A DNA stretch of 64,000 nucleotides from a virus, in the UHGV virus genome UHGV-0236300, one strand, 5' to 3'. Below, in pieces: positions 11,654-38,484 of this stretch. The notes beneath the pieces were generated by a model, which ran no database searches, was not told where the DNA came from, and saw only the letters and a list, made by a program, of their open reading frames with translations. Position 1 is the stretch's first letter; each line of letters starts with the position of its first letter. The translations under genes and the position numbers were made by a program.

Positions 11654-11662
11654 GGAGAAATC

Positions 11663-13408: not shown

Positions 13409-13413
13409 TATAT

Positions 13414-13445
13414 CTGACCGCTCCTGACGGGGCGGTTTTCTTATC
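13414..13445 (+). terminator. rho-independent terminator
   Basis: ACCGCTCC-TGAC-GGGGCGGT hairpin followed by TTTTCTT. Confidence 0.7.
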
Positions 13446-13456
13446 TGGAGAACACA

Positions 13457-19093: not shown

Positions 19094-19104
19094 CAAGTAG
19101 TAGA

Positions 19105-19139
19105 TAAAAAAGGGGGGCCAAATGGCCCCTTTCTTTTTA
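19105..19139. terminator. bidirectional rho-independent terminator between convergent gene blocks
   Basis: A-run, GGGGCC-AAAT-GGCCCC hairpin, T-run; sits between + gene ending 19093 and - gene ending 19143. Confidence 0.8.
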
Positions 19140-19142
19140 TAG

Positions 19143-19343
19143 TTAGTAATACTCCCAACATGCCCCATCTTCAGACGGCTTGACGCGCTTACCTTTATGG
19201 TCAACATAGGTATAGCCACAACCTTCACAAATAACAGGTGCTGCATAGCCTTCCTTCCACTGATCCTCAGTGATCAGACCTTCCAAATCTTTGCAGTCAA
19301 AGCCAAACAACTCTTCAGAGCAATCTTTACAAAAATCAGCCAT
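19143..19343 (-). CDS. small zinc-ribbon protein
   Basis: CxxC...CxxC pattern (CKDC...CEGC). Confidence 0.5.
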   Translation of the reverse strand: MADFCKDCSEELFGFDCKDLEGLITEDQWKEGYAAPVICEGCGYTYVDHKGKRVKPSEDGACWEYY

Positions 19344-19346
19344 TTC

Positions 19347-19829
19347 TCAGTCCTCGCATTTAACAAATTTTTCTACAGATCCACCAAGCACAGCTTGTTG
19401 TTTGATGGCACTTTCTTCTTCATAGTGGATAGACTTATGTTCCGTACCTCCGAACTTACCTGTGTGGAAGGTGTGCACCCAAATCTCTTTGGGAAGGGAT
19501 TTATTCTCTTCTTCCACCAATTCCCACATACCCCACAAGTGATCTGTGATATCTTTGATGAAATACCCCTCGCCGAGGTTTGTATTCACACTATAGGCCG
19601 ATTCGTGATCTCCACAAATATAACGGAAGGCAGTGTACTCTTTCCCAGGTGTGAAGTGGGTATCCATCAGTATAGCTGTTAGAGAATTAGGGTCTCGAAA
19701 GCCCAAGAACTTTAGTTTAACAATTTCGACGTTCACACTTGCAAGATTATCCATGACAATCTCCTCTGCTTGGTTGATGAGATAATCATATATAAATCTG
19801 GTGTTGATGTCAAGCTTAATTTTAAGCAA
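19347..19829 (-). CDS. hypothetical protein
   Basis: 160-aa ORF in co-directional minus-strand array. Confidence 0.55.
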   Translation of the reverse strand: MLKIKLDINTRFIYDYLINQAEEIVMDNLASVNVEIVKLKFLGFRDPNSLTAILMDTHFTPGKEYTAFRYICGDHESAYSVNTNLGEGYFIKDITDHLWGMWELVEEENKSLPKEIWVHTFHTGKFGGTEHKSIHYEEESAIKQQAVLGGSVEKFVKCED

Positions 19830-19917
19830 TTTGAGAGGGTATTTTATTTAGAGAGGTAATCACACAGAGGTAGGCAGTTTATGAAGGCACAGGCCTCGTT
19901 TGAGGCCTTAAAACAGA

Positions 19918-20298
19918 TTATGACGATTTGACGTAGCGCTCTGACAAAGCTGGGAAGCCAAAAGCAGCACCTACACTACCGTACGCTATCCACCATTGAA
20001 GTTCATCGTGACACCATTTTCCGATCAGAAAGGTGCTGGGGTAGCGAGTCAGTATTTTGGCATAAGCTTTAGGGTCTGCATCCTCTGGGATAATGATGCT
20101 TGGAACATCTTTGTTATGACCACAGCAGCAGTTTAGAGTTTTCAATCCTGCCGCCCATAGACTCATGATAGGTTTAGCCATGCACTTATCAAGGCACACA
20201 CGTTTTTTGCCGTCACGGAGCTTTTTAGGCACATCAACGATAACATTTGGATGCTTGGCACCTTTCACTTTCCAATTATAAGATTTACACTTGCACAT
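19918..20298 (-). CDS. hypothetical Cys-rich protein
   Basis: 126-aa ORF, multiple Cys/His (CKCK, CLDKC, CCCGH). Confidence 0.5.
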   Translation of the reverse strand: MCKCKSYNWKVKGAKHPNVIVDVPKKLRDGKKRVCLDKCMAKPIMSLWAAGLKTLNCCCGHNKDVPSIIIPEDADPKAYAKILTRYPSTFLIGKWCHDELQWWIAYGSVGAAFGFPALSERYVKSS

Positions 20299-20328
20299 TT
20301 AGTCAGTCTCCATCTAGAAAGCCATACT

Positions 20329-20499
20329 TTACTTAAAGTCTTTGTCACCTATTACGATTTCACGAATCCACTCATTGTGATGCTCAATGGATGTAAGGTG
20401 TAACATAATGCAGTGATTGTCATTACCAAACACGGCTCGATAAGCCTTAGCAGCACCATGATATAACTTCCACATCACGTAATGGTATCTTCGTTTCAT
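20329..20499 (-). CDS. small hypothetical protein (56 aa)
   Basis: Not in ORF track (below 60 aa); ATG overlaps stop of upstream gene (ATGA), suggesting translational coupling. Confidence 0.4.
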   Translation of the reverse strand: MKRRYHYVMWKLYHGAAKAYRAVFGNDNHCIMLHLTSIEHHNEWIREIVIGDKDFK

Positions 20500-20975
20500 G
20501 GTTCTTTCTCCGGTTCAGGATCTGGGTAATCTTCAATAATAAAGGGCCATCCGTTACGCTTAGCGTCAGACTTATACTCAATCTCCTTCATTGCAAACTC
20601 TAACTGATTCTTAGCCGGAATGCAAGCTGGAGAATCATCAACCCAGATGTCTGGGTAGATATCAAACTGCGCCAGATAAGCGGCCTTCTGAACGCCTCCA
20701 GTATAAAACACTCCAACATCGAGCTCCTTGCGCCAGTATTCGATGTCCACGTTGTCTTGAGTGATGAATCGGAAAGTCACAAGATAGACTGTCCACCCCT
20801 CCTTCTTCAGGTCCTTAATAAGGCGGGAGAAGATGAAAGGGCTCGCATTAAACGTTCCATCAAAGTCAATAGCAATGATATGCGTGCCGTGACGAGTCTC
20901 ATATGGATTGCTCGTGGTGAGATTGCTGTAGTTAAAAGGTACTTCTTCTCCGCAGTAGCTGTAGTCCATATTCAC
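20496..20975 (-). CDS. HAD-superfamily phosphatase-like protein
   Basis: Motif IAIDFDGTF (DxDGT) and later DIWVDD. Confidence 0.5.
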   Translation of the reverse strand: MNMDYSYCGEEVPFNYSNLTTSNPYETRHGTHIIAIDFDGTFNASPFIFSRLIKDLKKEGWTVYLVTFRFITQDNVDIEYWRKELDVGVFYTGGVQKAAYLAQFDIYPDIWVDDSPACIPAKNQLEFAMKEIEYKSDAKRNGWPFIIEDYPDPEPEKEP

Positions 20976-21247
20976 ACCTTCTCGTTGATAAATTTACGGG
21001 CGGTTTGGTGAGTTGTTTCTGCTGTCTTCAGAATGATATTAATTTTATTGTCAAGATCATTCATCTCAGCAGTTAATTCAGGAATCTCTCCAGCATGCAT
21101 GGTGAAATCATACATAGACATACCCAGGATCTCATTGATTCGGCGGTTGCATTCTGCAGCACGTTGGTTCATTTTCCAAGCTAACACTAGAGCCTCTTGC
21201 GTAGCCTCTAGTGCAAAGTCTAATACGTCAGCTTCTTCTTTCGTCAT
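20972..21247 (-). CDS. hypothetical protein
   Basis: Overlapping stop/start with neighbours. Confidence 0.5.
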   Translation of the reverse strand: MTKEEADVLDFALEATQEALVLAWKMNQRAAECNRRINEILGMSMYDFTMHAGEIPELTAEMNDLDNKINIILKTAETTHQTARKFINEKV

Positions 21248-21303
21248 CTCAGTCTCTCTTGTTGTATTGTTGATAGGTGTATGAATGCTTTATAACTCAC
21301 CTT

Positions 21304-21870
21304 TTATTCAAACTGCAATAGCAAATCCACCACCGCGCTAGGTCTGTCAACAAACTCACCGGGTCCACATGCCCACAGAGGGTATCCGTCTACATACCGC
21401 CAAATCCAACCTGCAGTGTGGAGTTCTAGCAGGGCAGTACCGTCCTTACTGTCAACCACTCTTTCCCACAGTGTTGGGCAGCGAAGCTTGAGGATCGGAT
21501 CCCCTCCCTTATACCCATCCATGTAGATACCCATTGCAAAGTTCAGCATCATCTTTTTGTGCACTGACCTCTTACTGAGGGTGCTCATCACTTCCTCTTT
21601 GTGGATGTTTGTAAGCTTCTCCTTGGCTACCTGCAGATCGTTGCAGCCATTGTTCAGAAGATCTTCCAGACACTTGACCCGAAGGTCGTGAATATCTTTG
21701 TCGTGCACCGTTGGTACAGGGTCGTAGCGATATAGCACTGTTGATACAAGGTTGCTCGGGTGTGGGTCTGACAGCAACCCATAACCCCAATACTCCTCTG
21801 TATCTGAAAGGACAAGACACCCAATGTCTCTGTCAAGCTTTCCTGTGTTGTAAGCCACATTGACCGCCAT
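21304..21870 (-). CDS. hypothetical protein
   Basis: 188-aa ORF in minus-strand array. Confidence 0.55.
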   Translation of the reverse strand: MAVNVAYNTGKLDRDIGCLVLSDTEEYWGYGLLSDPHPSNLVSTVLYRYDPVPTVHDKDIHDLRVKCLEDLLNNGCNDLQVAKEKLTNIHKEEVMSTLSKRSVHKKMMLNFAMGIYMDGYKGGDPILKLRCPTLWERVVDSKDGTALLELHTAGWIWRYVDGYPLWACGPGEFVDRPSAVVDLLLQFE

Positions 21871-21872
21871 AA

Positions 21873-22118
21873 TTATAGCTCCACTAGCAAAGTGCTCTCA
21901 AAATGCCTCTCATGCAGACCACTATAAGGAACCACTTCCACAACACCGTCGCGGATGTATGGAGTCATCATGGTGACATAATCACCGAACGGGTTGGCAT
22001 TATCACTAACCACGACCACATGCTGCCCCTCCTTGGCAGAGTGCCAGATAGATCTGCACTTCATCATGTGTTCGAGAGCGCCAGGTAAAATCTTGTTACG
22101 TTCTTTACGGGTCTTCAT
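21873..22118 (-). CDS. hypothetical protein
   Basis: Packed minus-strand ORF. Confidence 0.5.
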   Translation of the reverse strand: MKTRKERNKILPGALEHMMKCRSIWHSAKEGQHVVVVSDNANPFGDYVTMMTPYIRDGVVEVVPYSGLHERHFESTLLVEL

Positions 22119-22564
22119 AACAGATATAGCTCCTTATGAAAGTGGGCTTTCAATTTCTCACCGAGAAACTTCTTGATACCTTCCTCTAAAGTGTTTTCGA
22201 TGTAGTCCAGCTTAACTGCTTCGATAGACATATCATAGATCGCCAGCTCTAAGCTGTCAAGTCCCATCATAGCATGAACCATAAGATTTTCATCTTCAGA
22301 TACATTCAGGGGACTTCCTATAACATCTGGAGGCAGAATAGTTTCCCAATTATTCTGGGCGGTAGATCTCCCGCCATCCACCTTACGTCTCAGCTCGAAT
22401 GTATTCTTAGTGTAGAACACTTCATAAGAAACGATACGACTGTCACTCTCATAATAGACGAAGTTCAAGTAGGAGCCCAGCCGTAGTCGGCAAACTTCTA
22501 CCCCAAACCATTGTTTCTTATAAGAATTCAGGCTAATGCTGTCGCATTCACGTTTGCTCAACAC
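22115..22564 (-). CDS. hypothetical protein
   Basis: 149-aa ORF, stop overlaps downstream start. Confidence 0.55.
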   Translation of the reverse strand: MLSKRECDSISLNSYKKQWFGVEVCRLRLGSYLNFVYYESDSRIVSYEVFYTKNTFELRRKVDGGRSTAQNNWETILPPDVIGSPLNVSEDENLMVHAMMGLDSLELAIYDMSIEAVKLDYIENTLEEGIKKFLGEKLKAHFHKELYLL

Positions 22565-22580
22565 GGCCCTCTCCTTCTTG

Positions 22581-22814
22581 TTAATCTTCGTAAATAATGA
22601 TTTCTGCTTTAGGTTTTCGTGCTTTCAGGTCCAGCTCTATCCAGTGCACCATCGCTGTTTCAAGAAAAACAGCCTGGATGCATCCGTCTTCAGCGTGCCC
22701 TACCAGCATAACAAGATCTTCACATTCATCATCTGCATCACGGACATACAAGATCTCTCCAGATTCAAAGTCTTTCACAACCTGATTGCTGGATAATTTA
22801 CGAATTTTTGCCAT
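22581..22814 (-). CDS. small protein, member 4 of tandem paralog family
   Basis: 77 aa; shares MAK...GxxxxV...FxxxxxxL pattern with the three 87-aa genes upstream. Confidence 0.5.
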   Translation of the reverse strand: MAKIRKLSSNQVVKDFESGEILYVRDADDECEDLVMLVGHAEDGCIQAVFLETAMVHWIELDLKARKPKAEIIIYED

Positions 22815-22815
22815 A

Positions 22816-23079
22816 TCAGAAACCCTCTAAAAAGCTCTTGTAGAAAATAATCTCAGTATCCACACCAGTCACGATCTTGTCGTTCCTGATTTCATCTGTA
22901 AGATAGGTGTCAAAACGCAGCACCTGTGTGGTATTGTCACACATCCACTCGGCTGTTACCATGGCAAAAATCTTAGCATCTTCATTATCTGGTGTAAATG
23001 TTACCACCTCACCGCATTTAAACTTTTCGATAGGTTGCGTGTTAGCTTTTGGTTCTGCAATGGTGATTTTCGTGGTCAT
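22816..23079 (-). CDS. small protein, member 3 of tandem paralog family
   Basis: 87 aa; abuts neighbours with 1-nt overlaps. Confidence 0.55.
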   Translation of the reverse strand: MTTKITIAEPKANTQPIEKFKCGEVVTFTPDNEDAKIFAMVTAEWMCDNTTQVLRFDTYLTDEIRNDKIVTGVDTEIIFYKSFLEGF

Positions 23080-23342
23080 TATTCTCCTCCTTCTTTTGAA
23101 TAGCTTGTCTCTCCAAGGATGGTAATTTTGGTGTCAAGCTCTGTAACTTTCATGTTTGGTGGCAGATCGTACAACTCATTATTTTCTAAATCGAACCCCC
23201 ATACACAATGTTCCCCTGTTTTGACAATCATAACTATGTTTTGAATGCCGTCTCCGTCACAACTTACCACGGTCCCACATGGAAAACTGTCTGCACGCTT
23301 TTTGTTCTTCACTTTAGAATTGAATACAATGCTAGTAGCCAT
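23079..23342 (-). CDS. small protein, member 2 of tandem paralog family
   Basis: 87 aa; MATSIVF...GTVV...FDL motif shared. Confidence 0.55.
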   Translation of the reverse strand: MATSIVFNSKVKNKKRADSFPCGTVVSCDGDGIQNIVMIVKTGEHCVWGFDLENNELYDLPPNMKVTELDTKITILGETSYSKEGGE

Positions 23343-23605
23343 TATTGTTCCTCCACCATAACTTCGCCAAGAATTTCTATGCAGGCATCCATTTCTGTAA
23401 CAACCAAGGTGTGAGGTAGTTCTGCAAACACCTTTCTGAACAGGTCAAATACCCCAACATATATGTTTGCAGGATGTGATCTCACAACAAGTGCTGTATT
23501 CACATCTCCAAGTTCATCAACAAACATCACCACAGTACCTGGAGCTACTGAAGACAGATACTTCTTAGTTTTACGGTTGGATGCAAATTTTAACTCTGTT
23601 GCCAT
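23342..23605 (-). CDS. small protein, member 1 of tandem paralog family
   Basis: 87 aa; MATELKF...GTVV...FDLF motif shared. Confidence 0.55.
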   Translation of the reverse strand: MATELKFASNRKTKKYLSSVAPGTVVMFVDELGDVNTALVVRSHPANIYVGVFDLFRKVFAELPHTLVVTEMDACIEILGEVMVEEQ

Positions 23606-23620
23606 AAATAATCTCCTCCT

Positions 23621-25102
23621 TTATTTAACGTACTCGATTAATTCCACAGTTTTCCCAAAGCTCGGGATATAATTTTTATTATACCCTTCAGTGAGAACCC
23701 ATAAAGTATCGTACTTTTTCCACTTGTTGTCAACAGCCTTTTGTTCAAAGTTATGCTCAAAGTAGAGATCGGTAAGGACGATGACATCTTTTGCATTCGG
23801 TATGTTAGCATCCAGATACTCGAACACGCAGGCGGCTGTTGTGCCCCATGTTGAGTGGACCTCATAGTTGATCATCTCATCGATGTTACCGCGAGTGTAT
23901 ACTTTAACCTCTCCAACCTCGGTTGACCAACAGAACATCGTAACCTTAAACTCTTTATACAAATTGCACAACCCGGTGATCTCATTGAACATTTTCTTTA
24001 AAGTTCTTTGTGAGATCGATCCAGAAACGTCTAAAGCCACTACAATATCTATAGTGTTTTCCGGATTACGACCAGGAACAATAACGTGTTGATTCTTGTT
24101 TATAGCTCCAACTTTTCGCATTGTGGTGGTCAAAGACCCAGATCGGCGACCAGGTTTTCTGTAGGTTAACTCAGCCTTTCTTTTAGATAACATACGTTGC
24201 TTAATAATATCTATATAATTGATTACAGGCTTGCCTCTGTTTTTGACAAACTCGCGCACCGCCTCGGGGCAACGACCTCCTGAAGCTTGCATTGCTGCTT
24301 CCAACATGTCACCAGAGTCCTGCATGGCCTGATCTTTATCAGATTGACTGATTACTGGTTGCGGCTGATCATACCCCATAGCCTTTCCAAGATCATCACT
24401 GGTGCCACCGTTCCCACTCATGTGATCATCGGTTTGTCGTTTATCTCCTTGGGAGTTCTCACCTTTACCGTTCTTACTTTTACCGCTATTCTGATCTCTT
24501 TGTTTATCAAGAACTGCATAGACGTTCTCAGCAATCCATCCATGAAACTCCATGTCGCAGTAGCAACTGGCTAAGAAGCCAAAAGGCTTACCTTTTACGA
24601 ACTCAGTGCTTTTCCCCTTCGGGAAGAAAACACAAGGAGGCTTGCTAAAGTCAACCACAAGACCTGTGTTGATAACGTGATCACAAGCAATATTGAACAG
24701 TTCCGGCTCAAAGCTTTTACCACGGACCAGATGATCACAGATAATATGCCCCACCTCATGTGACAGAAGAAAGGCCACCTCTTTCACAGATTTTGGGGAA
24801 TAGAAAACTTCAGCCATCTCAAACTGCTTGTCAGTCAGAGATGCTTTAAGAATGGTTTTACGCTCATCTGCCAACCCCATAATGAACTCAGGACTGTAGT
24901 AGATGCGTTTATGGTCTGTTGCCATAGTGGAGCACCATGTGTGGTTTTCTACGAACTGCAACCCTGACAACAGTGTGCCATAAAACGGCAGCTTTTCAAG
25001 AAGGTACATGCGAGCGGCCTGCAGCATTCGCAAGGCATCATCTTTTTGTGCGGTAATGATTTCTGAACTTCTGCTATCCATTAAAACTCCAGAAGGGGCC
25101 AT
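23621..25102 (-). CDS. VWA-domain protein with N-terminal HExxH metallopeptidase-like domain
   Basis: HEVGH zinc-binding motif; VWA MIDAS-like DVSGSIS; alternative start at 25081 if hairpin 25095-25109 is terminator of upstream gene. Confidence 0.75.
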   Translation of the reverse strand: MAPSGVLMDSRSSEIITAQKDDALRMLQAARMYLLEKLPFYGTLLSGLQFVENHTWCSTMATDHKRIYYSPEFIMGLADERKTILKASLTDKQFEMAEVFYSPKSVKEVAFLLSHEVGHIICDHLVRGKSFEPELFNIACDHVINTGLVVDFSKPPCVFFPKGKSTEFVKGKPFGFLASCYCDMEFHGWIAENVYAVLDKQRDQNSGKSKNGKGENSQGDKRQTDDHMSGNGGTSDDLGKAMGYDQPQPVISQSDKDQAMQDSGDMLEAAMQASGGRCPEAVREFVKNRGKPVINYIDIIKQRMLSKRKAELTYRKPGRRSGSLTTTMRKVGAINKNQHVIVPGRNPENTIDIVVALDVSGSISQRTLKKMFNEITGLCNLYKEFKVTMFCWSTEVGEVKVYTRGNIDEMINYEVHSTWGTTAACVFEYLDANIPNAKDVIVLTDLYFEHNFEQKAVDNKWKKYDTLWVLTEGYNKNYIPSFGKTVELIEYVK

Positions 25103-25109
25103 TGGCCCC
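25083..25109 (-). terminator. putative terminator hairpin
   Basis: GGGGCC-ATT-GGCCCC hairpin followed on minus strand by U-rich tract; overlaps first codons of longest ORF. Confidence 0.45.
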
Positions 25110-25114
25110 TGTCA

Positions 25115-26164
25115 TTATTTAACGTGCTTGAAAATACCAGCCAACTCGGTCATTGTCATGCGAGTGGTCTTCATAAGGTCTGTCATAGCCTTCTCCATGA
25201 TTGGAGATACTACCATGAAGTTACCTTTGGTGAAACCTTTGTTCCAGTCGGTAACTAATAGGGGTTTAAGTCCGGCACCGAGACGTTCACCAGTTAAAGC
25301 ACAACATTTTCGAATGTATGTGCTCTTAAACTGGCTGAATGACAGATCAACTTTCATACCTGCATCGTAGAACGTCTGGCAATAGAAAGTGTAAGCTTTG
25401 GCAATCTCAACATCGTCAGGCAGTGCAGGAACCTCTTCTGTAAGCTCTTCTTCGACCCCTTGAGGCTCTTTTTCCTCTTCGTAAGCCTGTTGCGTCATCT
25501 CTTCAATCTCCTCTACTACAGGCTCGTTTACAATGTCAGAAATGTGCTTGTTGGCTCCACGATTAGCCATGAAGTTTTTAAAATCCTGCATTGGTGACAT
25601 ATCTTCCTCCCATTCTTCGTCAAAGAGTGCTAGTTTATCCTCTTCCGTTCCATATTGCAAGATGAAATCTTCAAAAGTGTAATCACCTTTCAATTTCTCC
25701 ATACGCTCTTCGCTCAGGTGGAGCATCATCTGCTGGACAATTTTTCGATCAGTTTTGTCTTTAATCAAGACTGCGGTCTTTTTATCTACCAGACAGTCCT
25801 TTAGAGAGTTGCATCTCAATCCTACCACACAACAGTTATCAACCGCATAAGGACCTTCATCATCTATCCGCTCTAGAGATGGGTAGAAAGGATTTCCCAG
25901 TCCGTTTTCATCTGTGTGCATGTCGAAAGGTATAAGGGTATAGTCGCATACTCCCTCTCCTAAAAGTTTTTTACCAAATAGGAGATATTCTTCCCATGAC
26001 AGGTTGAACTCTATATCCCGTTTCCGTGCGTTATTCTGTTTGCGTCTGTATTTTTTGAGCAAGCGCTCTAACTCTTCTGGTGTATAATATTTTTCAAGAT
26101 TCATGAGTTGTCTCTTGTTCTCTGTGGGTGGAGAAATCTTACCAAGTGCCTGAGAAGATGTCAA
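25115..26164 (-). CDS. hypothetical acidic protein, possible degenerate HNH/Zn-finger-like N-terminus
   Basis: 349-aa ORF; N-terminal ERIDDEGPY...NCCVVGLRCNSLK loosely HNH-like; Glu-rich C-terminal half. Confidence 0.55.
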   Translation of the reverse strand: MTSSQALGKISPPTENKRQLMNLEKYYTPEELERLLKKYRRKQNNARKRDIEFNLSWEEYLLFGKKLLGEGVCDYTLIPFDMHTDENGLGNPFYPSLERIDDEGPYAVDNCCVVGLRCNSLKDCLVDKKTAVLIKDKTDRKIVQQMMLHLSEERMEKLKGDYTFEDFILQYGTEEDKLALFDEEWEEDMSPMQDFKNFMANRGANKHISDIVNEPVVEEIEEMTQQAYEEEKEPQGVEEELTEEVPALPDDVEIAKAYTFYCQTFYDAGMKVDLSFSQFKSTYIRKCCALTGERLGAGLKPLLVTDWNKGFTKGNFMVVSPIMEKAMTDLMKTTRMTMTELAGIFKHVK

Positions 26165-26177
26165 CCTGAAAAACGTA

Positions 26178-26206
26178 TTGACTTTACTCTAAATCCACGA
26201 TATAGT
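26178..26206 (+). promoter_or_regulatory. sigma70-like promoter
   Basis: TTGACT-17-TATAGT upstream of 26247 in divergent intergenic region. Confidence 0.55.
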
Positions 26207-26246
26207 GCACCCATTCAAAAGAAAACTAACATAGGAGCACTTACTC

Positions 26247-27146
26247 ATGGCAAATCTTAACAGTTTTAGCACCAGGTGGAAACAAGATATCACAACCAAT
26301 CTCTCAGCAGGTGATATCCTTTCTGCAATTTACGAGGCTTTGGATGATAAAGCTACTTCAAAATCGGTTTGTACTAATCCGCTAATCCCTGTAGTGATGA
26401 AGGTAATTGAGCGGAGGTTGGTATCTGGGTCAGATAAGTGGACATACCTTGATAATGGAGGGCATACTTACTCCAACGGATATGTTGATATAAAAGTGGA
26501 ATACGCAGTATCATACCGCCGGAGCGGTTCTGTAACTTTCAACTTCTCTGGAGGTTTCCGATCTCTGGCAACTTCACCTTTTGTTTCCTCAGAGGAGAAG
26601 TATGAGCTGCCATTTCTTTGGATGATGGCTAACGCGACAGGAAAAACCCCCGTTAGCATCCGAGTAAAATACAACTACAACGGATCTAGTAAGATCTATG
26701 CCGAGAGTGTCTCAGCAAGTTTTTATTTTGTGATGGGGGATGGAATCCTCAAACATATAAAGATGTGCGATATGCATGATGTTATAAATGAAGTGACTGA
26801 TAAGAATGTCCTAGTGAAAGACCTCAATAATTTTTATACACCTGGAGACTATTACGTCAACCGCCCACTGTGCATCTTTAATGCCGCACACCCTTTAGGT
26901 GAGTATTTGATCGCCAATAGCGATATTGCCAATAATCGCTTCGAGGTAGCAAGAGTACAGAATGAGGTGTTGACATCTTGCAAGAGCGGTGATAAGTTTA
27001 CCGAAGAAGAGATGGGTGTTTTAGAGATGATGGGATATAAGTGTAGCCTTTGGGTAGATGAGGTGTTTAATGACGGCATCTATGGACAGGATATTTACCC
27101 ACTAAAGAAGTATACTGATTCCAGTTTAATTTACGCGGAGATTTGA
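26247..27146 (+). CDS. hypothetical protein
   Basis: RBS AGGAG; first gene of plus-strand block. Confidence 0.6.
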   Translation: MANLNSFSTRWKQDITTNLSAGDILSAIYEALDDKATSKSVCTNPLIPVVMKVIERRLVSGSDKWTYLDNGGHTYSNGYVDIKVEYAVSYRRSGSVTFNFSGGFRSLATSPFVSSEEKYELPFLWMMANATGKTPVSIRVKYNYNGSSKIYAESVSASFYFVMGDGILKHIKMCDMHDVINEVTDKNVLVKDLNNFYTPGDYYVNRPLCIFNAAHPLGEYLIANSDIANNRFEVARVQNEVLTSCKSGDKFTEEEMGVLEMMGYKCSLWVDEVFNDGIYGQDIYPLKKYTDSSLIYAEI

Positions 27147-27148
27147 CT

Positions 27149-27421
27149 ATGATGAAGTCATGTGGTAGTGTATATTATGTTGGTGAGAATGTTCAGGCAG
27201 ATAGTGTGTGGAAATCCATTAAGTCCACCACCGATGATGCCTTCTTGAGCGGGTTATGTTTCCCCAATCCTGGGGACATTCTCCCTCACCCTGGGGATTT
27301 TGTTGTCAACAAGACAGACGGTTATACCGTGTGCCTGATGGTTGAAAAAATCTTTTTAGACACTAGACACAATCACCGTCTTGTGCTAAAATTTCAAGAA
27401 TGTAAAATGACAGTTGCCTAA
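27149..27421 (+). CDS. hypothetical protein
   Basis: ATG at 27149 preferred over in-frame TTG at 27143. Confidence 0.5.
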   Translation: MMKSCGSVYYVGENVQADSVWKSIKSTTDDAFLSGLCFPNPGDILPHPGDFVVNKTDGYTVCLMVEKIFLDTRHNHRLVLKFQECKMTVA

Positions 27422-27433
27422 GGAGGCCTATCA

Positions 27434-27790
27434 ATGTCTAAAGTTACTTATCGTGCAGCTATTTACTGCAATGAGCAACCAATCAATAGTGATGGTCACT
27501 GCTTTTTTAAAGAAAATCAGTTGGGCTGTATTGCCCTCCCTGATGAAGGGGAAGGTTATATGATTGCATTGACAGGGTTTGAGCCTGAAGCCTTGGAAGC
27601 CAATCTGGACTACCTGGTAGAGAAGGGTGCTGCAGACTTGGTTGCCAATGGCCTCTCCATAAGCCTTGAAGAAGTGGAGCGCTTCATGGGCAATTACCGT
27701 GTAGTGCGTGAGTTTACTGTCGAGGTGGAAACTCCAGAGTGGGGTGGTACTGAAACTAATGCTGAAGAAAAAGAAGAGGAGGCAGAATAA
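27434..27790 (+). CDS. hypothetical protein
   Basis: RBS AAGGAGG; acidic C-terminus. Confidence 0.55.
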   Translation: MSKVTYRAAIYCNEQPINSDGHCFFKENQLGCIALPDEGEGYMIALTGFEPEALEANLDYLVEKGAADLVANGLSISLEEVERFMGNYRVVREFTVEVETPEWGGTETNAEEKEEEAE

Positions 27791-28047
27791 TGAAAGTGCA
27801 AATCTTAACTAATGCCGAGAAGATGTTTATCGAAGATACGCCTTTTGAAACTGGTGAGCTACAGTTTGTATATTTTGTTGACTTAGATAAGGTTTTTCCT
27901 GCGCTGAATCTGGGTTTGGAGAAAGTACCTTATAAAACTCTATGCCAGGTTGTCCGTGCCTTAGCGGCAGATGGAGAGTTCCACACCTTTGAAGATATCC
28001 AGACCTATGGGTATCTTGAACTGCAACGAGAAGAAGAGGTAGACTGA
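27790..28047 (+). CDS. hypothetical protein
   Basis: TAATG overlap with upstream gene. Confidence 0.5.
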   Translation: MKVQILTNAEKMFIEDTPFETGELQFVYFVDLDKVFPALNLGLEKVPYKTLCQVVRALAADGEFHTFEDIQTYGYLELQREEEVD

Positions 28048-28049
28048 TA

Positions 28050-28430
28050 ATGGCCCAGTGGAAGACAACAGTTGACCTTCATGATCAGTGGTTAGGACGC
28101 ATAACTGAAGACGGGAAACTGGTAGAGTGGGACAACAAACATGTTAGCGAGTTGGCAAGTATTGTGGCTGGCAAGTTACGCTCCAAGTTCCCTGAACGGC
28201 TGGATCCTGATAGTTCAAAGTTCGATCCTGAGTTGGAGGATGTTGTATACTACTTCGATACCGTTGATGACTACGACGCGTGGTTTGCAGCACGGGAGCT
28301 TTACCCACAAGGCTCTGCTATGCGCAAGATGGAAGAAGATTATCCTCCGTGTGAGCAATTCAATAGTGCAATGACTTGCCTCTATGATTGGGCAGATAAG
28401 AACCTTGTCTGGATTCGGACTGCATTTTAG
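28050..28430 (+). CDS. hypothetical protein
   Basis: 126-aa ORF tightly following. Confidence 0.55.
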   Translation: MAQWKTTVDLHDQWLGRITEDGKLVEWDNKHVSELASIVAGKLRSKFPERLDPDSSKFDPELEDVVYYFDTVDDYDAWFAARELYPQGSAMRKMEEDYPPCEQFNSAMTCLYDWADKNLVWIRTAF

Positions 28431-28474
28431 TGGGTAGGGATGGCGGCAAGGATGCTGCTTAAGGAGCAGTAGAG

Positions 28475-28744
28475 ATGTTATACCAGCAGTACGAACTTCG
28501 TGCAGAAAAAGAATTAAATTTTGACAAAGATATCCACAGATATTATTATGGGAAAGTTAGAGGGCAAGCAAGAAAGTGTACTCCAACACTCTTTTATGCC
28601 AGCAGACGACTAGCGCCAGAAGAGGCAACAGCAGAAAGGGTTGCATATGGCTGGAGAGTTGCGTATGATATTGACAGATCCGATGTGATGTCTGTTTTGG
28701 AAAACTTTGAAAACACTTACACACAAGTAGAGGACTTTTACTAA
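28475..28744 (+). CDS. hypothetical protein
   Basis: RBS AAGGAG; stop overlaps next start. Confidence 0.5.
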   Translation: MLYQQYELRAEKELNFDKDIHRYYYGKVRGQARKCTPTLFYASRRLAPEEATAERVAYGWRVAYDIDRSDVMSVLENFENTYTQVEDFY

Positions 28745-29928
28745 TGTCAAGAAACGTATTCGAAAGTGGTCAAATCACTGTCCGCGAGTTGCCAGCTATT
28801 ATTCAATTTGCCCAGCGTCATAACCGATCTGTCCTGATTTTAGGACCGATGGGCGTGGGGAAGAGCCAGGTGATGAAGCAGATTGCTGATAATATGTTCG
28901 GTGAGCGAGATGACAACCTGGTTGACGTGCGGTTGTCAGATAAAGATCCTGCTGACTTATCTGGGCTACCTATCCCTGTAGAGTCGGATGGGACTACACG
29001 CACAGTGTTTGCAATTCCAGAATTTTGGCCTGCAGATCCGGACTGGAGCGGAATTATCTTTCTAGATGAGCTTACTCATGCAGATAACTACCTGCAGAAG
29101 GTTGCAATGCAAATTATGCTCGACCACAAGTGCGGCACCTATGCATTTCCTAAGGGCTCTGTTTTTGTAGCTGCAGGTAACCGTGCTACAGACGGTGCTG
29201 TTCTTTCGGCGCTCGAAGCTCCTCTAGCTAACCGCTTTATCATTGTAGAAGTTACAAGCAGTGCAGAGGTGTTTATTGAGGACTATGCATTCCTTAATGG
29301 GGTGCACTCCTCGGTAATTGGATATCTGAAAAGAGTCCCATCAGCCATCGATAATTATGAGGCCATGGCTGAGATTAATTGTCCATCTTTTGCTACACCG
29401 CGATCTTGGGTTGCTGCATCTGACATCCTGCACGATTTTGACAGCGGTATTATTTCTGACGCTATGGCCCGTGTCCTTCTACAAGGTGCAATTGGTCACA
29501 CTGCAGCGGTAGAAATTTGGACCTACCACACCAAGAAACGAAACTTGCCAGAAATCGGTCGGATTATGGCAGGAGGCTGCAAAGAATATGTAGGTCCTAA
29601 GCAGCCAGACATCTTGTGGATTCTGGGGTCTGAAGGTTGTATCGCTATTCGTAATATGATGGAAAATGCAAGTATCTCCGACGAAGATCTCGTCAGCTGT
29701 GTGGCAAACTTCCTTGATTTCCTTTGGGAAAATTTCAAGGATGAGAACCGAGACTTTGTATTCTCAGTCTTTATGGCGATGATGAAACCTAACGCCTTAG
29801 GAAATGCCTTACTTATTGGTAAAGGCAGGGACAAGATCGTTGCTCAGCTGATCAAAGCATACCCAAACCTGATGAAGATTGTAAAAGAGTTTGGTGAAGA
29901 GTTTAGCGCCATTTTAGCTAAAGCTTGA
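28744..29928 (+). CDS. AAA+ ATPase, MoxR/CobS-like (AAA_5 type)
   Basis: Walker A GPMGVGKS, Walker B IIFLDELTHA, sensor region FVAAGNRATDG. Confidence 0.8.
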   Translation: MSRNVFESGQITVRELPAIIQFAQRHNRSVLILGPMGVGKSQVMKQIADNMFGERDDNLVDVRLSDKDPADLSGLPIPVESDGTTRTVFAIPEFWPADPDWSGIIFLDELTHADNYLQKVAMQIMLDHKCGTYAFPKGSVFVAAGNRATDGAVLSALEAPLANRFIIVEVTSSAEVFIEDYAFLNGVHSSVIGYLKRVPSAIDNYEAMAEINCPSFATPRSWVAASDILHDFDSGIISDAMARVLLQGAIGHTAAVEIWTYHTKKRNLPEIGRIMAGGCKEYVGPKQPDILWILGSEGCIAIRNMMENASISDEDLVSCVANFLDFLWENFKDENRDFVFSVFMAMMKPNALGNALLIGKGRDKIVAQLIKAYPNLMKIVKEFGEEFSAILAKA

Positions 29929-29937
29929 GGAGGTTGT

Positions 29938-30318
29938 ATGGCTAAAGTAGGTAAGCGGGGAAACTACCTAGTGGTATTGACCGAGGAGCCGGAGAAGGAG
30001 TACGAATGCAGCTCCACTTGTGTGATCGATATCCGAGAAAAAGATGTGGATGAAATCTGGTTTAAAATACTGGACGCTTGCGACAGCAGTGACTATTTCT
30101 TCATCTATGTCAACGATAAAGCGGGGTTCTTCCATGACGATGGGGAATTACCGTATGAAATCTATGAACTTGTAGAGGCTTGCCATCGTGGAGATGCGGA
30201 GTTGTTTGGTCTACGGCTGAAAAGCGGTAAATTCTTCTATCAAGATGAATGCATGAATCTTCACAACTTCGTAGAGGGGACTTGCAACGATGGAGAGATT
30301 TTGGCACACTACGATTAA
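29938..30318 (+). CDS. hypothetical protein
   Basis: RBS GAGGAGG; terminator follows. Confidence 0.55.
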   Translation: MAKVGKRGNYLVVLTEEPEKEYECSSTCVIDIREKDVDEIWFKILDACDSSDYFFIYVNDKAGFFHDDGELPYEIYELVEACHRGDAELFGLRLKSGKFFYQDECMNLHNFVEGTCNDGEILAHYD

Positions 30319-30329
30319 TTTCTAAGACA

Positions 30330-30358
30330 CACCCCGCTTCGGCGGGGATTTTCTATTT
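30330..30358 (+). terminator. rho-independent terminator
   Basis: CCCCGC-TTCG-GCGGGG hairpin (same 16-mer as at 3909-3924) followed by T-run. Confidence 0.75.
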
Positions 30359-30367
30359 GGAGCTATT

Positions 30368-30868
30368 GTGAAAATTAAAATCTTTGCTATTATTTTGAGC
30401 GCATTTTTATCGCTGCCTGTTGTTGCAGCACCAAAACAAAAAGTATATCACACTTGCAAGCCGTCGGATACTAAGGAAAACATTCTAGCATGCAATATCT
30501 ACAGGGAGGCTAGAGGGGATGGCACGATGGGGATGCTGGCATCCGGATTTGCCACACTAAACAGGAAATCTCACCCCAAATACCCAGACACTATAAGAAA
30601 GATTGTCTACCAACCTAACCAGTTTTCGTGGACAAACCACGGCAAAACTTTTAAGGTGACAGAAAAAGATTCATGGGATCACGCTAAAAGTCTTGCAAAG
30701 ATGCTTCTAAAGGTCTATAATAACAACCATGTTGCATACATGGCTATGGATATAACAGGTGGAGCAACACACTACCATACAACAAAAGTACGACCGAAAT
30801 GGGCAAAAAAGATGCAGAGGACAGCTCAATTCGGGAGTCATATCTACTACAAGGAGCGCAATAAATGA
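30368..30868 (+). CDS. secreted cell wall hydrolase, SleB-like
   Basis: GTG start; N-terminal signal peptide MKIKIFAIILSAFLSLPVVAAP; motif YREARGDG...ATLNRKSHPKYPDTIRKIVYQPNQFSW. Confidence 0.7.
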   Translation: MKIKIFAIILSAFLSLPVVAAPKQKVYHTCKPSDTKENILACNIYREARGDGTMGMLASGFATLNRKSHPKYPDTIRKIVYQPNQFSWTNHGKTFKVTEKDSWDHAKSLAKMLLKVYNNNHVAYMAMDITGGATHYHTTKVRPKWAKKMQRTAQFGSHIYYKERNK

Positions 30869-34063: not shown

Positions 34064-35433
34064 TGGAAAAAGGGCAGTACGATGTAGGCACAGATGCTGC
34101 CCTTGTTGCAATCATGAGCGGTGAGAATGTCTTCGTAAGTGGACCTGGTGGAACCGGGAAGACATATCTTATCAACATGATCCAGTCCATGTATGGAGAC
34201 TCTTGCATAACGGTTGCCCCGACAGGGGTAGCCGCTTTAAACGTTAATGGAGCAACAGCGCACCGAACTTTCGATCTTGCCGCAGGTGTGAGCATGGAGT
34301 CAGACTGGACAGCAATAAGGGCAAAAACAGCAAAGCCTCTGAAAAGCAAGGCATTTACCATCCTGATTATCGATGAAATCTCTATGATCCGTGCTGACAA
34401 GTTCATAGAGATGGATAGAAAACTCCGCTTTCTTCGGAAAAATGACAAACCTTTCGGAGGCATTCAGGTGTTATTGTTTGGAGATTTCTACCAAGCACCT
34501 CCAGTTGTCTCTTCTATGGAGAAAGAAGCCTACTTCAACTTCTACCACACAGATCTGTGTTGCTATACAGAATCTTGGGAGGATCTTAATCTTCACAACA
34601 TAGCCTTGGTAGACCAGTTCCGTCAGGAATCTGTTCGCTTCGCCACAATGTTGAACTGTGTTCGTGAAGGTCGTCGCATAAAAGAGGTTGTAGCAGAGCT
34701 TAACACTCGTTGCTATCATGGTGGTGTCCCAACAGATGCCTTGACCATCTGTGCCACCAATAAGCAAGCAGAGGAGGTGAACAGACGTTTCTATGATGCC
34801 ATCAAGGCCCCAGAGAAGACCTACATTGGTAAAATGAAAGGTAAGTTCCCTTCCACACTACCTGTGGAGCAGGAAATGAGGCTGAAGATAGGGATGAAGG
34901 TTATGATAACCTCAAACGATGTTGACCCTACTCACAAAGTTCCGTATTATGTTAACGGGACACGTGCCACAGTGGTAAAATTCAAGACCAAATCCGTAGT
35001 AGTTGAGCTAGAAGACGGAACACAGGTTGAAATTGAGCCGAGATTGTGGGAGAATAACGAGTACAAACCTTCCCAGAGGTACAATATTGCCGAAAGGAAG
35101 ATGGAGAAGTTCATAGAGAGGGTTGTGATCGGGTCTTATGAGCAACTTCCTTTGAAATCTGGGTACGCAGTAACATCGCATAAAAGTCAAGGACTTACGT
35201 TAGATTGTTACAACCTAGACCTCGGAAAGAACGGAGCTTTCTCTCCCGGAATGACGTATGTTGCCTTGAGTCGGGTTAAGACGATACAAGGAATAAACTT
35301 GTTGCGTCCATTAAGAGAGGTGGATATTATTGTTGACCCGAGAGTCGTAGAGTTTTATAATACAACTTTCCCTGGCTTAGACGAGAAAGTCAGGAAAGAT
35401 TTTGAAACTAGAGCAGAAAAGGGGGACGTATGA
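34063..35433 (+). CDS. SF1 DNA helicase, RecD/Pif1/Dda-like
   Basis: Walker A GPGGTGKT, Walker B LIIDEISM, C-terminal TSHKSQGLT...YVALSRVK. Confidence 0.85.
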   Translation: MEKGQYDVGTDAALVAIMSGENVFVSGPGGTGKTYLINMIQSMYGDSCITVAPTGVAALNVNGATAHRTFDLAAGVSMESDWTAIRAKTAKPLKSKAFTILIIDEISMIRADKFIEMDRKLRFLRKNDKPFGGIQVLLFGDFYQAPPVVSSMEKEAYFNFYHTDLCCYTESWEDLNLHNIALVDQFRQESVRFATMLNCVREGRRIKEVVAELNTRCYHGGVPTDALTICATNKQAEEVNRRFYDAIKAPEKTYIGKMKGKFPSTLPVEQEMRLKIGMKVMITSNDVDPTHKVPYYVNGTRATVVKFKTKSVVVELEDGTQVEIEPRLWENNEYKPSQRYNIAERKMEKFIERVVIGSYEQLPLKSGYAVTSHKSQGLTLDCYNLDLGKNGAFSPGMTYVALSRVKTIQGINLLRPLREVDIIVDPRVVEFYNTTFPGLDEKVRKDFETRAEKGDV

Positions 35434-35771
35434 GTTTGTGGAGAAATATCGTTAACTACGTGTGTGGCAATCCGACTCCTGAAGAGAAGGATGTTGTGAT
35501 TCACGATTTTACTAAAAGATCTCGTGAAAAAGATCTACTGCTAACAAAGGTGACTGATAAAGATCCTGCAGTAGGGGACTGGGCAGGTTTTGCGTTTACA
35601 TCGGACAAATACACCTTTAACAAAGGTGACTACCTTGTTGTGGATTTTAACGAAGATATTGAGGGTGCTGAACCTTACTATCAAACCCTTATTGTTGCAG
35701 GGTGTGTTGATCTCTCTGCAGGCATGCACAGTTTGATTCTTTTTGAGCTTGACTCTGAAGACCTTGAGTAG
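35430..35771 (+). CDS. hypothetical protein
   Basis: ATGA overlap with helicase gene. Confidence 0.55.
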   Translation: MSLWRNIVNYVCGNPTPEEKDVVIHDFTKRSREKDLLLTKVTDKDPAVGDWAGFAFTSDKYTFNKGDYLVVDFNEDIEGAEPYYQTLIVAGCVDLSAGMHSLILFELDSEDLE

Positions 35772-35788
35772 TAAGATGTGAGTATAAA

Positions 35789-35806
35789 GGGGAGGCACTC
35801 CTCCCC
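35789..35806 (+). other. strong intergenic hairpin (GGGGAGG-CACT-CCTCCCC)
   Basis: Perfect 7-bp GC stem with tetraloop; no downstream T-run, so probably not a plus-strand intrinsic terminator. Confidence 0.5.
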
Positions 35807-35832
35807 ACAAAAACTAAGGAGAGCACCAAACG

Positions 35833-37176
35833 ATGAGTAAAACCAAATTAGAACTTACCTGGATAGGTAAGAACGAGCGCAAAAAGCTAGAGCCTCACAT
35901 TTTGTTAGAAGATTCGAGCAAGTCTTATTACGCCAGTAAAAAGGTGACCGAAAACGATATTTTTGATAATAAACTGATTTTTGGAGATAACTTACTGGCA
36001 TTGAAGGCACTAGAGCAAGAGTATGCAGGCAAAGTGAAGTGTGTTTACATAGACCCGCCATTCAATACCGGAAGGGATTTTGAGCACTACGATGATAGCC
36101 TGGAGCACTCCATTTGGCTGGGCTTAATGCGGGACAGATTAGAAATAATTCGTAATCTGCTAAGCGATGATGGAGTGATATTCGTTCACTTAGATGACTG
36201 CGAAATGGCTTATTTAAAAGTCTTGATGGACGAGATTTTTGGTCGTGCAAATCAGTTAAATACCATATCGATGACTACAAATTGCCCTTCAGGCTTTAAG
36301 GCAACAGGAACTACAGTTTTCTCCACAGCAAACTTTTTGCTTGTATATGCAAAAGATCGTACCAAGAAACCACTTAACAAAATCTATATACCTAAAGAGT
36401 ATGATACGGGATATAACAAATATCTATTAAACCCAGATGACCATTATAAAAGTTGGACGTGGTGCGGTATTGCCGATGCGTTTGCAAAGGCCAATGGCTA
36501 TAAAGATACAAAAGAAGCCAAGAAAAAACTGCCTGATACATTTGATGATGAATTAGCACAATTTGCAATTGATAATGCAGAACGTGTATTTCAATCCGTT
36601 GCAATTGGCGGTGGTGCCAAAATAAAGAGAAAAGAAACTATCGAGAAGTCAAAGAAAGATAGGGATAAGGTTTATGTACATCCAAATGAGGATGTCGAAG
36701 GCTTTTATATCGCAAATGGTAGGCAAATGGTCTTTTATTCCAATAGGCTTTTGGAAATTGACGGCAAGATGCAGCCTGCTGAACTAATAACTGATGTTTG
36801 GACTGACATTAGTTGGAATGGAATAGCAAATGAAGGCGGCGTTAGTTTCAAAAATGGAAAAAAGCCCGAAGCGCTTTTGAAGCGAATTTTCGAAATGTGT
36901 ACGCGAGAAGGAGATTTAGTCTTGGATTCATTCGGCGGTTCAGGAACTACTGCTGCCGTAGCTCACAAGATGAAAAGACGTTGGATCTCTGTCGAGTTAG
37001 GTGATCATTGTCATACCCATATCATCCCGCGCTTGCAAAAAGTGATCGATGGCAAAGATCAAAGTGGTATTTCTAAATCTGTAAACTGGCAAGGTGGCGG
37101 GGGCTTTCGCTATTACAAACTTGCCCCGAACTTAGTTATGAAAGATAAGCTTGACTCAGAAGAAGATTTAGAGTAA
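35833..37176 (+). CDS. DNA methyltransferase, N6-adenine/N4-cytosine class (DPPF motif)
   Basis: Motif IV VYIDPPFNTG; SAM-binding LDSFGGSGTTAAVA; RBS AAGGAGA. Confidence 0.85.
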   Translation: MSKTKLELTWIGKNERKKLEPHILLEDSSKSYYASKKVTENDIFDNKLIFGDNLLALKALEQEYAGKVKCVYIDPPFNTGRDFEHYDDSLEHSIWLGLMRDRLEIIRNLLSDDGVIFVHLDDCEMAYLKVLMDEIFGRANQLNTISMTTNCPSGFKATGTTVFSTANFLLVYAKDRTKKPLNKIYIPKEYDTGYNKYLLNPDDHYKSWTWCGIADAFAKANGYKDTKEAKKKLPDTFDDELAQFAIDNAERVFQSVAIGGGAKIKRKETIEKSKKDRDKVYVHPNEDVEGFYIANGRQMVFYSNRLLEIDGKMQPAELITDVWTDISWNGIANEGGVSFKNGKKPEALLKRIFEMCTREGDLVLDSFGGSGTTAAVAHKMKRRWISVELGDHCHTHIIPRLQKVIDGKDQSGISKSVNWQGGGGFRYYKLAPNLVMKDKLDSEEDLE

Positions 37177-37235
37177 TATTTAAAATATCTAAGGGTAGGT
37201 CTACTCTTCACACAAGATAAGGAGAACACCAAACG

Positions 37236-37478
37236 ATGAAGCGTTATAAACCATACACTTTTGAAATCGATTTCGAACTTGACGATATGCTCACTGTAGA
37301 AGCTCAGGCAGTTGTCCAGTTGCCAGATCCGGAGTGCCGTGATTCTGATGTTGATTATTATGGATTTAGACAGATTACTGATGTGCATGTTTACCACACA
37401 ACGGAGAAGAGGTGGATTTTCACCAGTTACCAAACGATCTGCGCCACTCGATTTACAAACGTGCAGCACGTGAACTAG
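37236..37478 (+). CDS. hypothetical protein
   Basis: 5' leader nearly identical to leader of methyltransferase gene. Confidence 0.5.
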   Translation: MKRYKPYTFEIDFELDDMLTVEAQAVVQLPDPECRDSDVDYYGFRQITDVHVYHTTEKRWIFTSYQTICATRFTNVQHVN

Positions 37479-37539
37479 AGTCCTATCTGGATGCAGCGAC
37501 GACAGCGGCAGCATTTGCTGAAGAAGTAGGAGGCTTCTA

Positions 37540-37938
37540 ATGATTACAGATGTGAAGATTATCCAATACCACCTAACCAAATTAGAAGATGCTGAAAAAG
37601 AGCTTGCAGAAGTTCTGAACAGTGGGTATACTTTACTGACATGCTCCTGCTCAGACACATACATTGTGTGGACACTTGCTAAGAAGGAAGAGCCTGCATG
37701 GATCTTGGTGCCAAACCCAGAGATCGCTAGTGAAGTTGATGGCTACTCCCAAGATAACGGCTTGCCAGAAGGTTGGGAAGTGTGGGAAGGTGGTGAAAAC
37801 CCTGCACCAGGTAAGTGGGTAAAATACAAACTACGTAGCGGTGCACAGTATGCTGACTACTCTGATGACCTAGACTGGAGTCACTCTTCACCAGGATCAT
37901 CTGCAAGTGCATATGATATTGTTGCTTTTCAGGAATAA
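37540..37938 (+). CDS. hypothetical protein
   Basis: RBS GGAGG; 132 aa. Confidence 0.55.
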   Translation: MITDVKIIQYHLTKLEDAEKELAEVLNSGYTLLTCSCSDTYIVWTLAKKEEPAWILVPNPEIASEVDGYSQDNGLPEGWEVWEGGENPAPGKWVKYKLRSGAQYADYSDDLDWSHSSPGSSASAYDIVAFQE

Positions 37939-37950
37939 GGAGAGGGTGTT

Positions 37951-38433: not shown

Positions 38434-38439
38434 CACTAT

Positions 38440-38468
38440 GCCCTGCCCGAAAGGGTGGGGCTTTTTGC
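38440..38468 (+). terminator. rho-independent terminator
   Basis: GCCCTGCCC-GAAA-GGGTGGGGC hairpin plus T-run; near-identical copy at 49441. Confidence 0.7.
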
Positions 38469-38484
38469 ATTAGGAGACAGCAAA

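Follow-up and report, generated by a model that had tools for sequence, protein, structure and literature searches.

A MoxR-like ATPase and a DUF2201-family zincin/VWA protein as the putative, separated halves of one machine in an rV5-like phage

Can two phage genes that lie 3.6 kb apart and are read away from each other still encode the two halves of one machine? The question is raised by a 64,000-nt stretch of the virus genome UHGV-0236300 (hereafter the window, to which all coordinates refer), which encodes a MoxR-like AAA+ ATPase at 28744–29928 on the plus strand (394 aa, the ortholog of rV5 gp4) and a DUF2201-family protein at 23621–25081 on the minus strand (the ortholog of rV5 gp12). 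MoxR/VWA systems with established mechanisms include CbbQ/O, NorQ/D, RavA/ViaA, the Mg- and Co-chelatases and midasin. The probability that the ATPase and the DUF2201 protein are likewise two halves of one machine, in which a MoxR ring works with a gripping MIDAS (metal ion-dependent adhesion site) and a cutting zincin domain, and whose genes were split by an inversion and are still co-expressed outward in non-late units, is put at roughly 60%. The window is identified as Escherichia phage vB_EcoM-ECP26 (MK883717.1; Vequintavirus, rV5-like), to which the region 23000–30500 is 100% identical in reverse orientation, and more than 110 further rV5-like genomes match this region at 93–99% identity. 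Both open reading frames (ORFs) of the initial annotation, 23621–25102 on the minus strand and 28744–29928 on the plus strand, are present at those coordinates, and its description of them as divergent and about 3.6 kb apart agrees with a measured gap of 3,641 nt between genes on opposite strands that read outward.

The product of the leftward gene has a putative HExxH zincin domain at its N-terminus and a VWA domain with a MIDAS at its C-terminus, joined by a disordered linker, as evidenced through the ORF, Pfam, the GenBank coding sequence, an AlphaFold2 model (predicted local distance difference test, pLDDT, of 82.6) and start-codon analysis. Both Pfam domains exceed their gathering thresholds, DUF2201_N (PF13203) at 2.2e-28 and 100.1 bits against a cutoff of 23.2, and the VWA-like DUF2201 (PF09967) at 3.6e-11 and 43.7 bits against a cutoff of 26.4, and they stand in the N-to-C order that marks the DUF2201 family (COG3864-type). 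The HEVGH metallopeptidase-like domain and the VWA motif DVSGSIS that had been read from the sequence initially are both borne out, at residues 115–119 and 358–364 (numbered here in the 493-aa frame). The segment HEVGHIICDH (24731–24760, minus strand) has the form HExxHxxxxH and is a putative zinc site made up of H115, E116, H119 and H124; these four residues and D141 are invariant across 39 phage and bacterial homologs. It is followed by a low-complexity linker rich in G, S, D, K and Q (residues 212–235, 24398–24469, minus strand), which is predicted to be disordered (pLDDT <50) and has a comparable low-complexity counterpart in the homologs. The VWA domain (23639–24046, minus strand) shows the Rossmann-like VWA fold and carries a complete MIDAS, consisting of D358-x-S360-x-S362 (24017–24031), T421 (within 23837–23848) and D445 (within 23765–23776), and all five residues are again invariant in the 39 homologs. 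A direct sequence search of the PDB with this protein gave no match. The longest ORF does run from 25102, as first described, and comprises 493 aa, but the true start is probably ATG 25081 (486 aa), because this codon is served by a Shine-Dalgarno sequence (GGAG), is used as the start in GenBank and agrees with the N-termini of homologs; the loop of a GC hairpin contains ATG 25102.

The rightward gene encodes the motifs expected of a AAA+ ATPase, all on the plus strand: Walker A GPMGVGKS (residues 34–41, 28843–28866), Walker B IIFLDE (residues 104–109, 29053–29070), sensor 1 AAGNR (residues 143–147) and a conserved arginine, R164, in LANRF (both within 29125–29238, along with a pre-sensor-1 hairpin at approximately residues 128–136), and ATPRSW with a sensor-2-like arginine, R220 (29392–29409). 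In an alignment of 50 sequences, G37, G39, K40, S41, D108, E109, N146, R147, R164, P219 and R220 are invariant. The AlphaFold2 model (pLDDT 85.5) places strands 75–81 and 84–90 after helix 69–73, which gives a helix-2 insert beta-hairpin by secondary structure (residues 75–90, 28966–29013), and a short hairpin at approximately residues 129–134 before strand 138–146; as modelled, the ATPase would thus carry both the helix-2 insert and the pre-sensor-1 hairpin that mark the MoxR/dynein/McrB clade. Its database homologs (31–36% identity, E about 1e-45) carry precomputed matches to AAA_3, the MoxR family of Pfam, and to AAA_5, and a Sulfurivermis ATPase that is 32% identical (E 4e-37) passes AAA_5 at 43.9 bits and adjoins a DUF2201 gene. 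A direct sequence search of the PDB returned only P-loop-level matches to Clp proteins and profile searches were needed; the closest solved structures are those of the MoxR proteins CbbQ and NorQ, at 18–19% identity. The MoxR/CobS-type reading of the initial annotation therefore keeps its Walker A and B motifs and gains the support of structure and transitive homology, on which the assignment rests because the AAA_5 threshold proposed as a check, like those of the other models, was missed directly. Assignment to the MoxR class is, on homology and modelled structure, well supported.

That these two families belong together is indicated by gene neighbourhoods well beyond the rV5-like phages. The comparison covered 80 IMG/VR loci fetched through the ATPase, 80 bacterial loci fetched through the DUF2201 protein, and 50,697 phage records searched by tblastn; the bacterial loci were retrieved with a small alignment, which biased this sample in favour of proteins related to that of Sulfurivermis. 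Three distant relatives of the ATPase (35% identity) are each directly followed, on the same strand, by a gene for a protein with DUF2201_N and DUF2201 domains, and among IMG/VR loci with enough downstream sequence a DUF2201 homolog lies directly downstream on the same strand in all but one (L053). Exceptions to adjacency in IMG/VR are the Vequintavirus-type loci and L009. The ATPase gene precedes the DUF2201 gene in 75 of the 80 bacterial loci (within 600 nt in 68, and with one to three genes between in six), and in phage W70 the two are adjacent and co-directional. One lineage has the opposite gene order, still adjacent, at the locus of the 819-aa protein P0145. Matches to the DUF2201 protein and the ATPase were found in 675 and 813 of the phage records, respectively, and the counts for the two genes by taxon are nearly equal (Escherichia, 214 and 214; Pectobacterium, 26 and 26; Cronobacter, 17 and 17; Pseudomonas, 108 and 104). 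A linkage that outlasts changes of order, inserted genes and the boundary between phages and bacteria is strong comparative evidence of a functional pair, though not proof of a physical interaction between the two proteins. The proposal that a cognate MoxR/VWA pair is separated here is thereby upheld, given that the orthologs are adjacent and co-directional in distant phages, in N4-like phages (gp24/gp25), in W70 and in bacteria, and that their taxon distributions match. Two candidates examined alongside were discarded: P0145 is not an ATPase–DUF2201 fusion (Rosetta stone), its locus simply holding the reversed adjacent order, and an insert of 600–850 nt between the bacterial ATPase and DUF2201 genes was an artefact of split tblastn high-scoring segment pairs.

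The split layout is common to Vequintavirus, to L009 (147 kb; ATPase 54% and DUF2201 protein 43% identical to those of the window) and to Salmonella phage PVP-SE1 (gp225 and gp216), and across the genomes compared it is confined to the Vequintavirus/Seunavirus lineage. The adjacent layout is kept in W70, which is labelled Vequintavirinae and has an ATPase 36% identical to that of the window, and in L007 (146 kb). Since all outgroups have the genes adjacent, the split is the derived state. In L007, the ATPase–DUF2201 unit is divergent from a unit with a SleB-like hydrolase and a PIF1-like helicase, whereas in the window the ATPase sits within the hydrolase–rIIA–rIIB–helicase unit and DUF2201 alone is left in the opposite one. 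The simplest account of these gene orders is an inversion with one breakpoint between the ATPase and DUF2201 genes. The ancestral arrangement would then have been an operon of ATPase followed by DUF2201, and in the common ancestor of Vequintavirus and Seunavirus the inversion would have carried the ATPase to the far side of the divergent promoter region. No earlier report of this lineage-specific split was found.

The two units start from back-to-back sigma-70-like promoters at 26136–26206, identified by consensus scan and sequence (TTGACA-17-TAAGAT at 26164–26136 on the minus strand and TTGACT-17-TATAGT at 26178–26206 on the plus strand), in the 82-nt region between them. The leftward unit, which contains DUF2201, is closed by a bidirectional terminator at 19111–19132, and a terminator-like hairpin, CCCCGCTTCGGCGGGG (30332–30347, plus strand), lies one gene downstream of the ATPase. 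The description of rV5 likewise places bidirectional promoters in the interval from gene 10 to gene 11 and bidirectional terminators in that from gene 26 to gene 27 (PMC3606486). The rV5 late-type motif TGGTAAAATA (TggTAaAAtA, at most one mismatch) has 15 matches in the window against 6.2 expected, mostly on the plus strand in the structural-gene part (positions 593–17186) and at 34827–40327, and the scan found none directly upstream of the ATPase or the DUF2201 gene. The virion proteins given in the main text on rV5 do not include gp4 or gp12 (PMC3606486), and N4 gp24/gp25 are middle transcripts (PMC4193335). Sigma-70-like promoters, the lack of an upstream late motif, the N4 transcripts and the absence from the rV5 virion list together suggest that the ATPase and DUF2201 genes are co-expressed in a non-late phase. 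As the proposed inversion would have carried the ATPase across back-to-back promoters, both genes still lie in non-late units. The minus-strand block at 19100–26200 also stands out by composition, GC and AT skew changing sign there (about -0.1 to -0.18, compared with about +0.1 elsewhere), and such a change tracks the direction of transcription, as the rV5 description also remarks (PMC3606486).

How the two proteins might work together can be sketched by analogy with the better-known systems. The ATPase would presumably form a hexameric ring that docks on the VWA domain, whose MIDAS would grip an acidic group on the target, as in CbbQ/CbbO, NorQ/NorD and midasin. Hydrolysis of ATP may then pull or remodel the target for cleavage by the attached putative zinc peptidase domain, so that the whole would be a two-polypeptide ATP-dependent metalloprotease. 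Cleavage by the attached domain is expected because the HExxH glutamate is invariant. With both genes read outward from the back-to-back promoters, the two proteins could still be made together early or in mid-infection. The target is more likely to be a replication-phase or host protein than a virion protein, given the non-late context, the Srd-like and rII neighbours, and the neighbours with functions in nucleotide metabolism in other phages. The suggestion in the initial annotation of a system that acts as a chaperone or in remodelling, for assembly or for taking over the host, is a reasonable hypothesis; of its two directions, the non-late context favours a role before assembly over one in virion assembly.

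Several observations weigh against the proposed machine. The ATPase falls below the direct Pfam thresholds (AAA_5, 16.9 bits against 22; bpMoxR, 15.7 against 27) and has no AAA_3 match, its sub-threshold matches being AAA_14, AAA, AAA_5 and bpMoxR. The DUF2201_N domain has no solved structural relative among the matches listed, it matches named peptidase families only below threshold (M48, E 0.025; minigluzincin, BepA and HtpX, E 0.006–0.15), and a literature search yielded no report of peptidase activity for it. That search likewise found no experiment on any member of the MoxR/DUF2201 pair, including those of rV5, Vequintavirus, EdH4 and N4, and no transcriptome of the rV5-like group, and the promoters described here are consensus matches only. 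Co-occurrence within genomes is, additionally, also expected from shared ancestry alone.

Four other explanations can be set beside this one. The pair could instead be a virion-assembly chaperone with a maturation peptidase, serving tail or head assembly or the processing of structural proteins, by analogy with ATV p618/p892. An assembly role has in fact been proposed for the homologous group 2.2 pair of jumbo phages (Iyer et al., PMC7824862), in which homologs of both proteins occur, and the homologs of gp24/gp25 in roseophage RPP1 have some genes for virion proteins close by (PMC4193335). Nevertheless, this explanation appears unlikely when set against the placement of the genes, in two units with sigma-70-like promoters outside late genes 27–66 and with no late-type motif directly upstream of either. 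The middle-transcribed N4 pair stands beside dCTP deaminase and ThyX, at related loci the pair has a 5'-3' exonuclease and thymidylate synthase as neighbours, and bacterial chromosomes carry the pair with no phage context at all. The absence of both proteins from the main-text list of rV5 virion proteins points the same way, though a chaperone need not be packaged.

Rather unlikely as well is a conflict system, in which the pair would act in counter-defence, superinfection exclusion or host takeover by destroying an immune or housekeeping protein of the host. The non-late units, the adjoining Srd-like host-takeover gene and the rIIA/rIIB genes just downstream would suit such a role, and MoxR-vWA modules are used by bacterial conflict systems (PMC7159879). 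A search with PADLOC, however, gave only P-loop noise and no meaningful match, and NCBIfam gave nothing useful. N4-like phages have the pair in their core gene set, in contrast to accessory anti-defence genes, which tend to be variable, and the bacterial homologs occupy ordinary chromosomal contexts. This explanation also overlaps with the ATP-dependent metalloprotease favoured here, since it names a class of target and not a different mechanism.

An improbable third explanation is a chaperone for cofactor insertion or enzyme maturation like NorQ/NorD, CoxD/E, CobS/T or CbbQ/O, in which the HExxH motif would bind metal rather than cut, the client being, for example, a metalloenzyme of nucleotide metabolism. 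CbbQ and NorQ are the nearest solved structures to the ATPase, and the pair has as neighbours thymidylate synthase, dCTP deaminase with ThyX, or thymidylate kinase with an HD hydrolase (PVP-SE1), but no single enzyme gene is consistently linked to it across lineages and the neighbourhood may only mirror placement in a replication or middle-gene module. The invariant E116 is, moreover, the catalytic signature of zincin peptidases and not merely a metal ligand. It is very improbable that the two proteins became uncoupled after the split, acting independently or with other partners so that their pairing is only historical, since the different transcription units 3.6 kb apart and the lack of any sequence feature showing an interaction are set against genes that are intact in about 119 Vequintavirus records as well as in L009 and PVP-SE1 (43–54% identical), unchanged catalytic and MIDAS residues, no other VWA or MoxR gene among the ORFs scanned from 20 to 33 kb, and units that start at one bidirectional promoter region.

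The putative two-component ATP-dependent metalloprotease might, more speculatively, be a core early or middle function of N4-like phages, rV5-like phages, many jumbo phages and some bacteria, in which a host or phage protein selected through the MIDAS is unfolded and cleaved so as to switch the phase of infection; this wider proposal is tentative and on balance doubtful. If it is true, the split makes clear that co-translation of the two halves is not essential. In any case the split, in itself a minor evolutionary detail, implies that the genes do not have to be adjacent in an operon and that the pairing would escape an annotation based on neighbourhood. Among gene sets of large lytic phages that are neither structural nor concerned with replication, the pair is one of the most widely conserved, and rV5-like phages such as BASEL Bas49–52 and EdH4, which can be grown on E. 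coli K-12 and are amenable to CRISPRi-ART and Cas13 editing, offer a practical system in which to study its function.

The genes between the pair had been described as unknown, and this holds for the six that precede the ATPase in the rightward unit (26247–28744, plus strand; 299, 90, 118, 85, 126 and 89 aa), but not for 25115–26104 on the minus strand, the first gene of the leftward unit and directly upstream of DUF2201, which is Srd-like and the ortholog of rV5 gp11 (PHROG 3118, GenBank coding sequence, PMC3606486). Its product matches PHROG 3118 and, more weakly, Srd and sigma-70-decoy families, and the gene also adjoins DUF2201 in L009 and PVP-SE1. The hairpin whose loop holds the upstream in-frame ATG of the DUF2201 gene is a perfect GC-rich palindrome in the gp11–gp12 spacer (25094–25110; GGGGCCAATGGCCCC on the minus strand), and could be an attenuator or RNA-stability element between the Srd-like and DUF2201 genes. 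Directly downstream of DUF2201 are four small tandem genes (22581–23605, minus strand; 77, 87, 87 and 87 aa), of which the first and second share 38% identity and the others 14–21%, with length and pattern in common; by sequence, this looks like a tandem paralog array. In the rightward unit, the product of 26247–27146 is annotated as a 'putative alpha 1-3 fucosyltransferase', a name that appears unsupported because its sole match is PHROG 12338 (unknown function), with none in Pfam or NCBIfam. The 89-aa ORF at 28475–28744 overlaps the start of the ATPase gene by 1 nt (TAATG), which suggests translational coupling. This ORF is named 'ATPase' in PHROG 13164 and some records, without domain support, and no homolog of it was detected in L009 or L007.

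In GenBank, the gene at 28744–29928 is labelled 'MoxR ATPase' and that at 23621–25081 'anti-sigma factor' in ECP26, but sister phages have it as 'putative metallopeptidase' or 'VWA-like domain containing protein', and PHROG 1314 and several RefSeq records as 'HNH endonuclease'. Pfam supports neither 'anti-sigma factor' nor 'HNH endonuclease' for this protein, and the former is a mislabel, apparently carried over from the adjacent gp11. Under the name 'Campylobacter phage' (host Campylobacter jejuni), sixteen records match this rV5-like E. coli phage, those listed (A147, A112b) with 98–99% identity at the protein level, and their host labels look doubtful. Nearly all of the bacterial loci (L092–L171), a sample biased by the query, belong to Gamma- and Betaproteobacteria that oxidise sulfur (SUP05, Thiotrichales, Bathymodiolus symbionts, Thiobacillaceae and others). 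Within this sample, a 370-aa gene without a Pfam match follows DUF2201 in 36 of the 80 loci, and its product may be a third component. Ferrochelatase and thioredoxin, which are neighbours in Sulfurivermis, are not conserved, occurring in 3 and 10 of the 80, respectively.

Compared with known systems, the pair in the window is a further member of a phage module that already carries annotation and for which an in silico description, in jumbo phages, dates from 2021. No paper was found that names MoxR together with rV5 or Vequintavirus, and a CRISPRi-ART study using the rV5-like phage EdH4 did not target the ATPase or DUF2201 genes. The same two families are encoded by genes 24 and 25 of N4 (Schitoviridae), which are among the 14 core genes of N4-like phages, gene 24 being of unknown function and gene 25 carrying a vWFA domain (Chan et al. 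2014, PMC4193335). In the N4-like phage G7C, gp25 matches DUF2201_N at 1.3e-54 and DUF2201 at 2.9e-34, and gp24 is 24% identical to the ATPase of the window (E 9e-22). The N4-like pair is adjacent and co-directional whereas that of the window is split, and the window proteins are longer, the zincin domain having inserts and the ATPase extending further at its C-terminus. In G7C, an HNH homing endonuclease gene, gp24.1 (L089, 3534–4010), lies exactly between gp24 and gp25, so that the pair is interrupted but not lost. The bacterial operons of AAA_5 and DUF2201 (COG3864-type) genes comprise orthologous families, the DUF2201 protein aligning with all motifs invariant, but are chromosomal and co-directional, as sampled from the sulfur-oxidising groups above. 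CbbO and NorD, on the other hand, lack a peptidase domain and fall outside the DUF2201 family, and their targets, Rubisco and NO reductase, have no counterpart in the window phage. Midasin/Rea1, from eukaryotes, is a single giant polypeptide that contains six AAA modules but lacks a peptidase. The mechanism proposed here has its likeness in the FtsH-type AAA+ zinc metalloproteases, where a AAA+ motor feeds an HExxH zinc peptidase. The domain architecture of the window pair is shared by the group 2.2 MoxR-vWA pair of jumbo phages, with its N-terminal metallopeptidase (Iyer et al. 2021, PMC7824862), for which a like chaperone/co-chaperone logic was proposed. Homologs of both window proteins occur in jumbo phages at 24–30% identity; the group 2.2 pair was proposed to act in virion assembly, whereas in the window phage, of 137 kb, the genes are split on opposite strands and lie in non-late units.

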